DNA of 60,217 nt, taken from positions 1 to 60,217 of the IMG/VR virus record IMGVR_UViG_3300043427_000906; one strand, given 5' to 3'. Shown one piece after another: positions 1-60,217 of this stretch (position 1 is the first letter of the stretch; each line of letters opens with the position of its first letter). Source of the DNA: a virus. Lineage: Duplodnaviria; Caudoviricetes. Position numbers and translations under genes: made by a program. The notes under the pieces are model-generated. The model saw only the letters and a list, made by a program, of their open reading frames with translations, had not been told where the DNA came from and made no database searches.

Positions 1-8
1 GCATTTTT

Positions 9-182
9 TTACGCGTTCTCATAGGATAAAGATTTTATAAGGATTTCAGTTATAGTGTCTTGTACTTCGAATTCATCTTGGTCATCGGTGTCAATGCAAT
101 CCTTCACGTAACCAAGTTCGACTAGCTTATCCGTAATTCGAATAGCGATGTCGGTGATGTCATTTTCAGATAGCTTCTTCAT
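9..182 (-). CDS. Small acidic early protein, 57 aa (MKKLSENDITDIAIRITDKLVELGYVKDCID...SYENA); present only in allele A
   Basis: Translated by hand; ATG overlaps the end of the upstream ORF, stop overlaps the start of the next gene (MRTRKK). Confidence 0.75.
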   Translation of the reverse strand: MKKLSENDITDIAIRITDKLVELGYVKDCIDTDDQDEFEVQDTITEILIKSLSYENA

Positions 183-300
183 AGGTAGGAGATTTTAAGA
201 TGATTGAATCGGATTCGAATTTTACTATAGCCCATCCCAAGTACATTAGTTGGGCGGCTAGTTGCTGACCACTGAGGGTGGTTAGGTCAATTGTCTGCAT
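166..300 (-). CDS. Small early protein, 44 aa (MQTIDLTTLSGQQLAAQLMYLGWAIVKF...)
   Basis: Translated by hand; 3 of the 5 allele differences versus the end copy are synonymous in this frame. Confidence 0.7.
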   Translation of the reverse strand: MQTIDLTTLSGQQLAAQLMYLGWAIVKFESDSIILKSPTYEEAI

Positions 301-317
301 AACTGATTTTTAAATGA

Positions 318-422
318 TTAAAACAATGTTGATGCGATAAGTAGGCAGATGCCAAACACCGCGATAAAATAGCAAAAACCTTCGATAATTTGTCTTGCTT
401 CGTTCGTAGTTTGATGCTTCAT
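318..422 (-). CDS. First early gene, 34-aa single-TM peptide (MKHQTTNEARQIIEGFCYFIAVFGICLLIASTLF)
   Basis: Translated by hand; hydrophobic C-terminal half; lies directly 3' of the hammerhead. Confidence 0.65.
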   Translation of the reverse strand: MKHQTTNEARQIIEGFCYFIAVFGICLLIASTLF

Positions 423-434
423 AACTATGGGGTT

Positions 435-485
435 AGGTTTCGCCTTGCTGAGGCTCATCAGTACGGACAGCATATCCGTAGACCT
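435..485 (-). ncRNA. Type III hammerhead ribozyme
   Basis: Minus strand reads AGGUC^UACGGA-UAUGCUG-UCCGUA-CUGAUGA-GCCU-CAGCA-AGGC-GAAACCU: complete core (CUGAUGA, GAAA, GUC), stems I-III, and loop1 UGCUG complementary to loop2 CAGCA. Confidence 0.92.
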
Positions 486-877
486 TGTCACTTACCGAGC
501 AGATACCAGTGATAAATCGACTGGCTCGTTAACCCGACCAGTGCAGACCTTTCGGCTCTCTGCACCCAACACCCTAACTTCGACTGGCGAAGGTTTGGCG
601 CGACCTAACGTGAACACTGGGAGTTGGTACGAAACCGCCAGTGTGCCTGATGTTTATTTGCTGAGGAGGGCATCCTCAAGTCCCATTCCCACTCTTCGTG
701 GTGGCTCACAACGTTTTACAACGGAAGGCTCATATCGGGACTATCGCTATGCATTTATCGTGGTTTGGTGACTGGCTATCCATCGTAAGCACCTTGTCGG
801 GTGGATGGGTAAGAGTGCGTTGCCCTAACACGTTGTAGCGAACATTTGAAAGAACTGCGGACTCATTGTCGAATCCG
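481..877 (-). ncRNA. ~400-nt structured early leader RNA between promoter and ribozyme cleavage site
   Basis: No credible ORF; many hairpins (GUGCAG..GCC-GAAA-GGU-CUGCAC; CACUGG/CCAGUG; AGUCCC/GGGACU; UGAGGA/UCCUCA; CCAC-GAAGA-GUGG; CCAGU/ACUGG); 5' end approximate. Confidence 0.65.
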
Positions 878-880
878 ATG

Positions 881-913
881 CAAACATAGGGTGGCAGGGT
901 AACTACTTCCAAA
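881..913 (-). promoter_or_regulatory. Bacteroidota sigma-type early promoter
   Basis: TTTG (913-910), 21 nt, TATGTTTG (888-881); matches the -33/-7 consensus TTTG/TAnnTTTG. Confidence 0.8.
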
Positions 914-933
914 TTTATTTTTAAAATTGATGG

Positions 934-995
934 TTATCCACACAAAAAAACCTTCGTAACTTGGTGAAAATCATAGCATAGAAAAGTTATCCACA
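934..995 (+). promoter_or_regulatory. Two perfect DnaA boxes
   Basis: TTATCCACA at 934-942 and 987-995, same orientation, AT-rich intergenic context. Confidence 0.7.
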
Positions 996-1060
996 TTCCA
1001 AAAGTTTTTTTACGAGGGGTGGTGAAAACGGGTAAAAATGGGCAAAATAATCCCAAAATA

Positions 1061-1126
1061 TTTAGCAAACGAATGCTAAAGAAATTAGTCGCTCACAATG
1101 AAAGCAAAATGCTAAAGAGATTAGCA
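1061..1126. promoter_or_regulatory. Clustered TGCTAA/TTAGCA inverted repeats (operator- or iteron-like)
   Basis: TTTAGCA-N6-TGCTAAA (1061-1080), TGCTAA-N5-TTAGTC (1074-1090), TGCTAA-N5-TTAGCA (1110-1126). Confidence 0.55.
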
Positions 1127-1149
1127 ATGGTAGGGGGTTCGGGGGTATA

Positions 1150-1479
1150 CTAGAGCCGTTTATTCACTAGGTAGTTACGTAAGTAAGAAAGGTATTCACG
1201 TCCAGTAGAAGAGATAGAATAATACTTGCCTTCACGTATAAGCAAACCCAGTTGGACAAGAGTGTTAAGAGTGTTCCAACTATTGCGGACATCCGGCACA
1301 ACGACGTGGGGACGGAAGCCGTTAACGTATCCAGTCAGATGAGAGATAGAAGAACGACCAAGCCGACGCGAAGCATAGAGGTAACGCAACTGGGAGTCAC
1401 TGAGTGGACGAACACCGATGCGACGAGAAGCACGATAGTTTGCCGCATCCCCCATTAGATAGTATTTTTCCGGCTTCAT
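1150..1479 (-). CDS. Winged-helix (MarR/ArsR-like) DNA-binding protein; start probably MKPEKYY rather than 1629
   Basis: C-terminal NTLNTLVQLGLLIREGKYYSISSTGREYL is a typical wHTH recognition helix plus wing. Confidence 0.6.
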   Translation of the reverse strand: MKPEKYYLMGDAANYRASRRIGVRPLSDSQLRYLYASRRLGRSSISHLTGYVNGFRPHVVVPDVRNSWNTLNTLVQLGLLIREGKYYSISSTGREYLSYLRNYLVNKRL

Positions 1480-1997
1480 TGGTTGGGTATTTTTACTGGT
1501 GGTAGGTTCATAAGGATGGTTGAATTGAAGAGGGGGAGGGGTGGCTACTGTATCTTTAAACACACACGCATAACCTACACATTCACAATATTTTACGAGC
1601 ATTATATGTAGTTCAGTTTCCCTATTCATTCTATATCACTGGGATTCCATACTAGAATAACCACAACCTAACGCAATATGTGTCAGCCAGTTAGCTATTG
1701 TATGGGGGTTATATGGTATTACCCGTTCGGGCATAAAATCGTTTTTGGAACTGCCTAAAACACCCCCACCCAGTTTGCGTTTTGCGATTCGCAAAAAAAT
1801 TCAAAAGCCACTTAAATAATACATAACCCCCACTCCATACCCACACACAACCCATATAAAATCCCAGATCCAAAACTCCCGCCTTTTTGCGCGCTATCCT
1901 TCCCCTCAAATCTTATCACTGGCGTATCTATTCAAAGATAATAATAAGCCCGTAATCGGTCTGGAAATGGATACTCACATCTGTGGAGAAATGGGTG

Positions 1998-2029
1998 TTT
2001 GTCGGTTCGGGGTTTTGTTTGTATGTTTG
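1998..2029 (+). promoter_or_regulatory. Bacteroidota-type promoter for the rightward arm
   Basis: TTTG (1998-2001), 20 nt, TATGTTTG (2022-2029); same -7 octamer as the leftward promoter. Confidence 0.75.
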
Positions 2030-2032
2030 TGT

Positions 2033-2230
2033 GGCTACGTTATCCGGGTGCATGGAGATAACATCAAGGGGGCCCCGTAGCTGTGCGAAGATTGAAACTT
2101 CGGCGACGATTTAATAGGACAGGTCAACACGTATAAACCGGCGGAAGACCCTCCACAGGCGATGCCACCAAATAGGATGGACGGCCTTAAACAACCCTAA
2201 GGGGGGAAAGGGGGGTGTGCTCAGAATTTT
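2033..2230 (+). ncRNA. Structured GC-rich leader or small RNA
   Basis: GGCTACG/CGTAGCT, GTTATC/GATAAC, CGAAG-ATTGAAA-CTTCG, GGTC/GACC and AGGC/GCCT stems; no ORF until 2283. Confidence 0.45.
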
Positions 2231-2282
2231 CTTGGCTCAGATTTAATGCTTTTTTATCTCTCGTTTAATTAATTTGCACCTT

Positions 2283-2444
2283 ATGGAAATGTTACTTCGT
2301 AAAGATGGTTCTTATTCTCGTCGTGGTCTATGGGATAATATCAGGGCCAAGGCTGGTAGTAATAAGAAGCCAACTAAGAAAATGCTAGAGCAGGAACGTA
2401 AAATAAAAAAAGATGCCTCTAAAAAAAGCAAAAAAGAAAAGTGA
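2283..2444 (+). CDS. Small basic protein, 53 aa (MEMLLRKDGSYSRRGLWDNIRAKAG...)
   Basis: Translated by hand, below ORF-track cutoff; Lys/Arg-rich. Confidence 0.7.
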   Translation: MEMLLRKDGSYSRRGLWDNIRAKAGSNKKPTKKMLEQERKIKKDASKKSKKEK

Positions 2445-2586
2445 GCTCCAGTCAGCCATCTCGGCTAACATCCGTGAGCTGATGGCGGATAACAAGAAAA
2501 AGGGTAAGGCAAAGGGAGCTGGTGGTAAGGCCAGATCCAAGAAGCAGATCCTTGCTATTGCTATATCAGCCGCTAAAGGTAAATGA
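2413..2586 (+). CDS. Small basic protein, 57 aa (MPLKKAKKKSELQSAISANIRELM...KQILAIAISAAKGK)
   Basis: Translated by hand; resembles the common phage MPLKK..ISxNI..Q.vAIA family; ATGA overlap with the HNH gene. Confidence 0.7.
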   Translation: MPLKKAKKKSELQSAISANIRELMADNKKKGKAKGAGGKARSKKQILAIAISAAKGK

Positions 2587-2852
2587 GAAAGCACACTAAG
2601 GTTTACTTAGACTTCTTTGGTTACGGGATGGATAGCTGGATGCCCTGTGAGGTATGCGGATCTACTGCCGTGGATATTCACCATATCGCGGCTCGGGGTA
2701 TGGGTGGGTCTAAGAATAAAGATGAGATTGACAACCTAATGGGTCTTTGTCGGTCCTGCCATATTGAGTATGGCGATAAGAAAAAGTACATGGATATGCT
2801 TTCTGAGGCGCACATGCGTTTCATGGATAAGTATAGTAATTCACATTTGTAG
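2583..2852 (+). CDS. HNH endonuclease (packaging-associated type)
   Basis: CEVC...DIHHI...NLMGLCRSCH. Confidence 0.85.
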   Translation: MRKHTKVYLDFFGYGMDSWMPCEVCGSTAVDIHHIAARGMGGSKNKDEIDNLMGLCRSCHIEYGDKKKYMDMLSEAHMRFMDKYSNSHL

Positions 2853-2899
2853 ATAAGTAATATGATCAAGATATCCACATCTTGTAGTAATTTAGTCAT

Positions 2900-3469
2900 A
2901 TGCAGCCTATCTACAAGATATTCGTTAAGATTGACAAGCGGTTTCAGGACGAGATAGAAACCGAGTCTGGCTTAAAGCTATACAAAGATACTTCATTCAA
3001 ACAAGAGGAGAACTCAACAATTGTTGGGCAGGTGGTTGCTGTACCAGATAAGTATGACCACTCTATGGGATCTGAAGATTTCAAGGCTAACGTAAAAGCA
3101 GGAGATAAACTATATTTCCATTTCTTGGTGGCCATGGATGAAGAGAATAGGATAGAGGTGGATGGTGAGGAGTACTGGATGGTAGATTATTTTAACGCGA
3201 TCGCGCTGGTGCGCGATGGTAAGATAATACCTGTCGGTGATTATATATTATTAGATCCAATCAAAGAAAAGATTGAGACCAGCTTGATAGTCCCAGACAC
3301 TGTTGATAAGGAAGGTACTCGCGGACTGGTGGTAGCAAGTAATGATCCTAGTATCTCGGAAGGGTCTATTGTGGAGTATGAAGAGGTCGGAAAGTTTTGG
3401 AATATCATCGAGGGGCGTAGGCTATATTGCATGTTCAACCAAAACATTTTATTTATACACAATGACTAA
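2900..3469 (+). CDS. Co-chaperonin GroES-like protein with two tandem domains
   Basis: Domain 1: ETESGLKL..GQVVAVP..VKAGDKLYF; domain 2: PVGDYILLDP..SLIVPD..GLVVAS..EGSIVEY. Confidence 0.75.
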   Translation: MQPIYKIFVKIDKRFQDEIETESGLKLYKDTSFKQEENSTIVGQVVAVPDKYDHSMGSEDFKANVKAGDKLYFHFLVAMDEENRIEVDGEEYWMVDYFNAIALVRDGKIIPVGDYILLDPIKEKIETSLIVPDTVDKEGTRGLVVASNDPSISEGSIVEYEEVGKFWNIIEGRRLYCMFNQNILFIHND

Positions 3470-55971: not shown

Positions 55972-56018
55972 GAACTGCATCGGTCACGAGCCGATAGTCA
56001 AGCGGTCTTGAGCAGTTC
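55972..56018 (-). ncRNA. Mini-tRNA-like junction element E2
   Basis: GAACUGC-UCAAG(ACCG)CUUGA-CU-AUCGG(CUCGUGA)CCGAU-GCAGUUC then CUCACCAAAAC. Confidence 0.75.
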
Positions 56019-56024
56019 GGGGGA

Positions 56025-57242: not shown

Positions 57243-57285
57243 GAACTGCCGGAGGAATCGAACCTCCGTAAGACCATCGCAGTTC
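57243..57285 (-). ncRNA. Mini-tRNA-like junction element E3
   Basis: GAACUGC-GAUGGUCUUA-CGGAGG(UUCGAUU)CCUCCG-GCAGUUC; canonical T-loop. Confidence 0.8.
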
Positions 57286-57289
57286 TTTT

Positions 57290-57358
57290 GCCGAGCCGAT
57301 AGTGAACACATCTATGTCCTCCTATCCCCACACTATATGTGGTGGCTCTCGGCGGTTC
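57290..57358 (-). ncRNA. Additional branched structure 5' of E3
   Basis: GCCGAG/CUCGGC closing stem, CCACA-UAUAG-UGUGG hairpin, GAUAG/CUAUC; shares GAGCCACCAC..GUGGGRAURGG with 683-707. Confidence 0.55.
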
Positions 57359-57364
57359 GGGGGA

Positions 57365-58282: not shown

Positions 58283-58328
58283 GAACTGAGGGTGGTAACG
58301 AACCACCTTCGCACGTTGCTCTCAGTTC
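58283..58328 (-). ncRNA. Mini-tRNA-like junction element E5
   Basis: GAACUGAG-AGCAACGUGCGAA-GGUGG(UUCGUUA)CCACC-CUCAGUUC then CUCACCAAA. Confidence 0.78.
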
Positions 58329-58334
58329 GGGGGA

Positions 58335-58839: not shown

Positions 58840-58882
58840 TAACTGGGAGGGGAGTCGAACCCCTCCTAAGACCATCCAGTTA
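58840..58882 (-). ncRNA. Mini-tRNA-like junction element E6
   Basis: UAACUGG-AUGGUCUUAG-GAGGGG(UUCGACU)CCCCUC-CCAGUUA; begins in the upstream stop codon. Confidence 0.8.
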
Positions 58883-59660: not shown

Positions 59661-59704
59661 AACTGGGGGCAGTATCGCTCTGCCTTCGGACTTTCCTCCC
59701 AGTT
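59661..59704 (-). ncRNA. Mini-tRNA-like junction element E7
   Basis: AACUGGG-A-GGA(AAG)UCC-GAA-GGCAG(AGCGAUA)CUGCC-CCCAGUU followed directly by ACCA. Confidence 0.75.
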
Positions 59705-59711
59705 CGGGTGA

Positions 59712-59795: not shown

Positions 59796-59983
59796 AAGGA
59801 TAAATTTGCTTGTCTACAAATGCGCTCCCATTTTAGGTCTCGGAGCAATTGCTTAGAATCACCGCCAATTTCGTTGAGAATCTGCCTTACCCTATTATGG
59901 GTGGAGATGGTAACCTCAGTACGGCGGATGAGCTGACCATTGGTCTTGGATGTGAATAACGGCATTTTTTTACGCGTTCTCAT
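59792..59983 (-). CDS. Basic early protein (MRTRKK...)
   Basis: ORF track. Confidence 0.6.
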   Translation of the reverse strand: MRTRKKMPLFTSKTNGQLIRRTEVTISTHNRVRQILNEIGGDSKQLLRDLKWERICRQANLSL

Positions 59984-60217
59984 GGGTAGGAGATTTTAAG
60001 ATGATTGAATCGGATTCGAATTTTACTATAGCCCATCCTAAGTACATTAGTTGGGCGGCAAGTTTCTGACCACTGAGGGTGGTTAGGTCGATTGTCTGCA
60101 TAACTGATTTTTAAATGATTAAAACAATGTTGATGCGATAAGTAGGCAGATGCCAAACACCGCGATAAAATAGCAAAAACCTTCGATAATTTGTCTTGCT
60201 TCGTTCGTAGTTTGATG
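59962..60217. repeat. Terminal overlap, allele B (lacks the 57-aa gene)
   Basis: Matches 1-22 joined directly to 183-416. Confidence 0.95.

Follow-up and report, generated by a model that had tools for sequence, protein, structure and literature searches.

A predicted hammerhead ribozyme between a conserved leader RNA and the early genes of a phage

Introduction

Why would a phage place a self-cleaving ribozyme between a long structured leader and the first ORF of its early genes, and does the cut serve the RNA upstream of it or the mRNA downstream? The question is raised by a short stretch on the minus strand of a phage genome (435-485), where a type III hammerhead had been predicted from the sequence. 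Cleavage by hammerheads is assisted by divalent ions and leaves a 2',3'-cyclic phosphate and a 5'-OH, and a tertiary contact between stems or loops I and II is needed for it to be fast at physiological Mg2+. The arrangement at this locus is also that of RiboJ-type insulators, in which a self-cleaving ribozyme follows a variable 5' leader, precedes the ribosome-binding region, and gives the mRNA a defined hairpin end; these are engineered, whereas the present one is natural and conserved.

The roles of the self-cleaving ribozymes of bacteria and phages are described as still largely elusive in the portion of a 2019 review on which we draw (PMC6765202). For the particular position ahead of an early ORF, a role is already known from a published precedent (Perreault et al. 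2011, PMC3088659): in the haloviruses HF1 and HF2, 13 nt separate the HHphage hammerhead from the first early ORF, and mapping placed the transcript's 5' end no more than 3 nt away from the cleavage site.

Results

The hammerhead heads a minus-strand gene unit

The window, by which we mean the entire stretch of DNA that was analysed, is a whole IMG/VR record of 60,217 b. The ends of this record overlap imperfectly, since positions 179-416 correspond to 59980-60217 (97.9% over 238 b) and the left-end copy holds ~133 extra bases, inside a 57-aa ORF at 9-182, which indicates a circular or terminally redundant genome whose assembly drew on mixed variants. From ~2.3 to 44 kb, the plus strand encodes, among others, an HNH endonuclease, the large terminase, the portal, and an SU10-type capsid protein. 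A minus-strand unit runs from ~1.6 kb across the junction of the ends down to 44 kb, and encodes small ORFs, a protein of the PAPS-reductase family, an Erf-like annealing protein, a YqaJ exonuclease, an integrase, a primase-helicase, and a dNMP kinase. It fits an early or recombination-replication operon, the word early being taken from gene content and orientation. The hammerhead heads this unit, after 730 b without a credible gene.

The gene upstream of this stretch is conserved (1150-1479, minus strand, ~109 aa), and always precedes the control region and the leader. Its open frame extends over 159 aa (1150-1629, minus), and because the homologues in L004, L005, L058, L061, and L062 are 106-110 aa long, the internal ATG at 1479 is the probable start of translation (109 aa). 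The 159-aa ORF matched no Pfam or PHROG family, and a search with it for related viral loci retrieved none. Between this gene and the leader lies a putative control region (906-1149, minus) with the same layout in the relatives. It contains TGCTAA/TTAGCA palindromes (~1060-1125, between the 109-aa gene and the promoter block of the leader), two TGTGGATAA boxes resembling DnaA boxes (987-995 and 934-942, minus), and a conserved A/T-rich block ending in TTTGG, which is a putative promoter; a scan for sigma-70 promoters gave nothing above chance. The stretch of boxes and palindromes may be an operator and origin region. Similar boxes and palindromes occur in L072, L076, and L078. On the other side of the hammerhead, a C/A-rich spacer without a Shine-Dalgarno match (423-434, minus) leads from the 3' strand of stem III to the first start codon, which opens an ORF for a 34-aa hydrophobic peptide (318-422, minus). 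This ORF is also found in L055, and other relatives have a different one in first place.

Architecture and detection of the hammerhead

Read from 485 to 435 on the minus strand, the parts of a complete type III hammerhead follow each other in order. Stem III (482-485 with 435-438) has four pairs, including A15.1-U16.1, and is open, carrying both the 5' and the 3' end, while stems I and II are closed by loops: stem I (475-480 with 462-467, six pairs) by a loop 1 of 7 nt (468-474), and stem II (451-454 with 442-445, four pairs) by a loop 2 of 5 nt (446-450). The CUGAUGA core occupies 455-461 and the GAAA 438-441, so that C3, U4, G5, A6, N7, G8, and A9 are all in place (455-461), as are G12, A13, and A14 (439-441), the A15.1-U16.1 pair (438/482), and a nucleotide other than G at position 17 (C481). 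From the position of the GUC relative to stems I and III, self-cleavage is predicted after C481 (C17), between 480 and 481, 58 nt (counted from 480) upstream of the first ATG (422-420). Sequence reading thus bears out both the complete minus-strand ribozyme with a predicted cut at 481/480 and its distance from the first early ATG, as originally predicted, and the former is further confirmed by a match to the Rfam hammerhead model RF00008 at 39.4 bits and by the covariation of the stems in ten distinct homologous sequences.

The Infernal search, which had been proposed as a check, gave a mixed outcome. The match to RF00008 (432-488, minus) is significant, with E values of 1.4e-7 for 181 b searched, 2.3e-6 for 2.9 kb, and 1.1e-8 per record, and its score falls below the gathering score of 48.5. 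For this reason, a default Rfam scan of the whole window at the gathering threshold returns no match at all. The alignment to the model ascribes the shortfall to the short stem III and to the lengths of the loops. When folded as an isolated piece of 65 nt, the minimum-energy structure is the hammerhead three-way junction, and this fold is no stabler than those of shuffled sequences (z -0.59).

Conservation and replacement of the ribozyme in related phages

We collected relatives through the PAPS-reductase gene, conserved motifs of the leader, and the upstream 109-aa gene, and obtained 12 distinct junctions between leader and first ORF: ten with a type III hammerhead, one with a type-P1 twister (L057), and one without a recognisable ribozyme (L059). 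By the PAPS-reductase route, leader and hammerhead were found in three of 40 loci (L004, L005, and L006), both being absent from the fetched flanks of the other 37. The ten junction hammerheads comprise five distinct sequences of stem I and five of stem II, all of them fully paired (6 bp and 4 bp, respectively), with double substitutions at positions 3, 4, and 6 of stem I and at positions 2 and 4 of stem II; the helices thus show compensatory substitutions among the relatives. CUGANGA, GAAA, and GUC are invariant in the ten distinct homologues, where only position 7 varies (U or C), and stem III has three to five pairs. The spacer from GAAA to AUG measures 10-17 nt in all ten hammerhead junctions (15 nt in the window). 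The hammerheads of L004 and L005 are divergent, with one extra U after A9 and altered stems, and at E <= 1 RF00008 misses them as well as the L076 version; the remaining homologues score 31.4-43 bits. Our own type III descriptor matched only the site in the window and its homologues when run over both strands of 68 loci (635,816 bases). A near-exact hammerhead pattern had no match in viral contigs, and blastn of positions 1-3000 of the window against 50,697 phage records gave none either. Since the core is intact and the stems change in a compensatory manner across ten sequences, the pattern among the relatives is that expected for a ribozyme under selection and unlike that of a chance motif.

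The contact between the loops fares differently. In the part of the study of these elements used here, type III hammerheads in which stem I exceeds stem II by 2 bp are associated with a pseudoknot between stems I and II (PMC3088659). The window resembles these pseudoknot hammerheads in having a stem I of 6 bp, a stem II of 4 bp, and the 5-bp Watson-Crick complement between loops 1 and 2 (UGCUG/CAGCA) that had been noticed originally, and that was equalled in 27 of 2000 loop shuffles. It differs from them in that the six other distinct sequences measured hold complements of only 4, 4, 3, 3, 2, and 2 bp, without covariation, which leaves a conserved base-paired contact unsupported. The complement is therefore real and confined to the window's own variant: its presence stands, its conservation does not, and selection for it cannot be claimed.

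In L057, a more distant phage of the group, the hammerhead at the junction of leader and first ORF is replaced by a candidate type-P1 twister (RF03160; 11936-11998, minus; 55 bits, E 1e-9), a match that falls below the gathering score of 67.2. The surroundings are the same: the C-terminal end of the upstream gene, the palindromes, the promoter block, and the 3' module of the leader all recur in L057, and after the twister a C/A-rich spacer of ~17 nt precedes a small hydrophobic ORF. The twister, which is absent from the window, therefore shares with the hammerhead the junction, the end chemistry, and a similar distance to the AUG, and differs from it in fold. In L059, where the leader module and even the GUC are retained, the junction has no recognisable ribozyme, so the cut may be dispensable there or be made otherwise.

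These comparisons bear on the suspicion that the hammerhead is an inactive look-alike, arisen by chance or decayed, in ordinary untranslated or antisense-coding sequence. The suspicion could draw on the RF00008 score under the gathering threshold, on weak RF00008 matches (E <= 10) in seven of 14 control genomes, and on a 114-aa open frame that crosses the site on the plus strand (427-771). Nevertheless, we judge it very improbable. First, the E value per record of the RF00008 match is 1.1e-8. Second, stems I and II carry compensatory changes over ten sequences in which the core is intact. Third, a second class of ribozyme stands at the same site. Fourth, the plus-strand frame overlies the covarying helices of the leader, with their paired substitutions, and is broken in relatives by indels not divisible by three, so that we rejected it as a gene.

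A conserved and modular leader RNA

The ~425 nt before the cut at 481 correspond to a structured non-coding leader RNA (486-905, minus), supported by alignments and covariation. It spans from the conserved A/T-rich block ending in TTTGG (~906-915), which would set its 5' end, to the cleavage site. Its conserved 3' module runs from ~688 to 486 (minus). In an alignment of nine sequences (A3), this module has 48 pairs, with 94.1% of the cells paired, compared with 31-46% when the partners are slid, and 21 pairs show double-sided changes, compared with 3-9; none of 500 shuffles reaches any of these measures. Rfam gave no family for the leader, either at E <= 10 (481-925) or at E <= 1 (1-2900), and for want of a match it is filed under no known family. 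Our literature searches, which were not aimed specifically at the leader RNA, returned no paper describing it. The leader is modular: L004 and L056/L061 hold an extra block of ~130-200 nt, and L072/L073 and L076/L078 have different leader bodies with the same 5' part, the same last hairpin, or both. This last hairpin, with its conserved loop, stands directly before the ribozyme and is kept in most leader types.

In its early part (858-877, minus), the leader contains a terminator-like hairpin with a U-rich run behind it; next comes a conserved run, AGUUCUUU, present in all leader types and twice in L004. Several candidate features of the leader were rejected. Small ORFs inside it are unlikely to be coding because their frames are not conserved and overlie covarying helices. 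A helix between the leader and the GGUC at the cleavage site, proposed by RNAalifold, is an artefact of a truncated alignment, with a better covarying partner situated upstream. CCAAACC, considered as a motif common to leader and initiation region, is not enriched (9 vs 5.6 expected). A leader pattern had eight matches in genome contigs, none of them confirmed by nhmmer; we regard these as chance matches, and they give no clue to the host.

Such a leader invites the opposite reading of the cut, in which the ribozyme would be a host-independent maker of 3' ends whose product is a stable regulatory RNA of ~425 nt, acting in trans and protected by its 2',3'-cyclic phosphate, the 5' end of the mRNA being a by-product. 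The leader-derived immunity RNA of the satellite phage P4 offers a remote analogy. Several observations agree with this: the leader is strongly structured and conserved, its last hairpin and loop are retained ahead of the ribozyme in most leader types, and the interchanged hammerhead and twister yield the same end chemistry. In addition, contigs of 318-490 nt from four metatranscriptomic libraries, belonging to four studies, cover parts of 489-859, although contigs prove neither transcription nor ends and cannot show the leader as a discrete species. There are none on 1-488 and none across 481/480, and they end at 489, 538, 542, and ~512, positions that in contigs cannot be taken for RNA ends and that speak neither for cleavage nor against it. 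Yet the leader bodies of L072/L073 and L076/L078 have been replaced wholesale while the ribozyme was retained, the same phages carry type I hammerheads (see below) in ordinary intergenic slots that no leader precedes, and targets complementary to the conserved hairpin loop are not enriched in the genome (13 vs 13.6 expected). We rank release of the leader as the purpose of the cut second among the readings, at well below even chances.

The leader also enters into the folding of its surroundings. In a context of 201 nt the minimum-energy fold differs from the hammerhead, and an invariant G/U-rich motif of the leader (~564-574) pairs with 426-438 on the minus strand, which takes in the 3' strand of stem III and spacer sequence ahead of the AUG. 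This pairing would compete with the hammerhead, and it is not kept in relatives having other spacers. One could imagine from it a regulated switch, in which the fold of the leader or a bound factor hides the 3' strand of stem III and the initiation region and thereby couples cleavage and translation to a signal. The ~10 nt that the motif would capture, including stem III strand and spacer, and the shortness of stem III (3-5 bp) speak for such a device; however, the complementarity depends on the window's own spacer, from which those of the relatives differ, the invariant motif also takes part in a local consensus helix (helix 3), and in L057 the twister replaces the hammerhead without any such pairing. 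A switch is accordingly improbable in our estimation.

Later intergenic slots of the early unit

Further downstream, the intergenic regions of the early unit have their own recurrent elements. CCCGAAC occurs 19 times in the window, compared with 2.35 expected (eight-fold), and 14 of these copies are on the minus strand (examples are 1137-1143, 56015-56021, 57355-57361, 58325-58331, and 59702-59708, all minus). Several copies directly follow stop codons of the early unit, usually in the form CCCCCGAAC, and after these come bulged hairpins whose outer stem starts with GAACUG. Five intergenic hairpins with such a stem (59661-59708, 58841-58881, 58283-58331, 57243-57285, and 55972-56021, minus) are placed after a stop codon and ahead of the next C/A-rich initiation region. 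Two have a canonical T-arm, and the other three have an inner hairpin of 5 bp with a loop that is not a T-loop. The first of the two (58841-58881), between the PAPS-reductase gene and the next ORF, is a tRNA-like minihelix made of an acceptor-like stem, a 9-nt bulge, and a T-arm with a canonical 7-nt T-loop, which matches the T-arm of the tmRNA model at 14 bits; the second (57243-57285) has its T-arm stacked on an acceptor-like stem. In neither case does CCCGAAC come directly before: the stop codon of the PAPS-reductase gene is where the first begins, and ~70 nt separate the second from the copy at 57361 that precedes it. They were rejected as tRNAs, since ARAGORN reports zero genes, Rfam gives no tRNA match, and they consist only of an acceptor-like stem and a T-arm. 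The GAACUG-stem hairpins may be signals for cutting by RNase P or Z.

In the early units of the relatives, a type I descriptor identified seven type I hammerheads (L057 11282-11333; L059 550-624 and 935-990; L076 3743-3794, 4187-4238, and 4586-4635; L078 3803-3852), of which Rfam sees a single one (RF00163, 23.5 bits). All seven lie between early ORFs, 13-16 nt before the next AUG, and they have a nearly identical stem I. The CCCGAAC motif is found in the relatives too, sometimes as CCCCCGAGC with a type I hammerhead next to it. In L076 and L078, a stop codon is followed by CCCCCGAGC and then by one of the type I hammerheads; in the corresponding slot of the window, the variant CCCCCGAAC is followed by tRNA-like hairpins. 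The idea of a single punctuation system comprising both the hammerhead and the 'mini-tRNA' elements, first suggested for the window itself, receives from these shared slots a support that is indirect but specific.

Discussion

Taken across the group, the 18 ribozymes (ten hammerheads at the junction, the twister, and seven type I hammerheads) all lie ~10-18 nt before a start codon. Downstream of the junction there are at least six unrelated first ORFs among the relatives, and upstream of it three types of leader body, so that the comparison points to the ribozyme slot as the only constant amid varying first ORFs and leader bodies. Two unrelated folds that share only their chemistry fill one slot, which makes the cut itself seem to be the selected function. 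That it would be selected just ahead of the initiation region follows from the fixed distance to the AUG while flanking genes and leader bodies vary, and from the presence of minihelices in later slots. The original prediction that self-cleavage severs the leader from the early mRNA is thus supported by comparison, through the covariation of the hammerhead, the twister of L057, and the spacing of 10-18 nt to the start codon. We regard it as highly probable that a functional type III hammerhead severs the leader from the early mRNA on one long minus-strand transcript. Among the possible purposes of this separation we rank first one on the side of the mRNA, namely a defined and protected 5' end together with an initiation region freed from the folded leader, because the distance to the start codon is constant in the 18 ribozymes while the genes and leader bodies vary.

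We can now outline how severing the leader from the early mRNA would work in a phage that we take to be temperate, podovirus-like, and freshwater, with a bacterial host; from comparison of sequences we infer its transcription, cleavage in vivo, end chemistry, and any effect on stability or translation. The process would involve 1) initiation of the minus-strand transcript ~425 nt upstream, from a promoter that closely follows the 109-aa gene and the palindromic sites; 2) folding of these first 425 nt into the conserved modular leader RNA; 3) local folding of the hammerhead, which would cut after C481 once 435-438 have been transcribed, during or soon after transcription; 4) parting of the cleavage products, which the short stem III would allow; 5) release of the leader with a 2',3'-cyclic phosphate end; and 6) a polycistronic mRNA starting at U480 with a 5'-OH, the hairpins of stems I and II, and a C/A-rich unstructured initiation region, with the start codon 12 nt after stem III. 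The hammerhead would then be the first of a series of cutting sites, host-independent or host-assisted, that divide the early operon before start codons. The later sites would be type I hammerheads in the relatives; the window would use tRNA-like minihelices instead, with RNase P or Z as the presumed nuclease.

This arrangement has both likenesses to and differences from known systems. As in HHphage, the hammerhead precedes the first ORF of an early polycistronic transcript at close range (13 nt in HHphage; in the window 15 nt, measured from GAAA). In contrast, the core of HHphage has an atypical insertion and belongs to archaeal viruses of salterns, whereas the core in the window is canonical and the host would be a freshwater bacterium; moreover, the hammerhead of the window, unlike HHphage, has a structured and conserved leader RNA of ~425 nt ahead of it and a twister as its substitute in a relative. 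In prophages, clustered hammerheads flank genes, and a role in processing long phage transcripts was proposed in the part of the same report considered here (PMC3088659). The present group resembles these clusters, as they appear in that part of the report, in that the ribozymes lie between genes of the same orientation, near an integrase, and the flanked genes are not constant. It departs from them in the window, where there is one ribozyme and the later slots hold minihelices, and the type I hammerheads of L057, L059, L076, and L078 come closer to the published pattern.

What sets this case apart is a conserved leader that had not been catalogued, the exchange of hammerhead and twister at one junction, and the sharing of slots between ribozymes and minihelices. 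The natural variants of this junction could be used to separate three possible effects of the cut: on mRNA stability, on the insulation of translation from a structured leader, and on the release of the leader. Going further, we tentatively propose, at well under even chances, that the early operon of this group depends on interchangeable RNA-cutting modules (a type III hammerhead or a twister at the leader junction, type I hammerheads or tRNA-like minihelices in later slots, each 10-18 nt ahead of a start codon), and that the severed leader of ~425 nt represents a novel and modular family of structured phage RNA with an action of its own once released. If this held, these phages would provide a natural system in which ribozymes are functionally equivalent to signals of the RNase P type, and would offer a direct handle on what the self-cleaving ribozymes of bacteria and phages are for.
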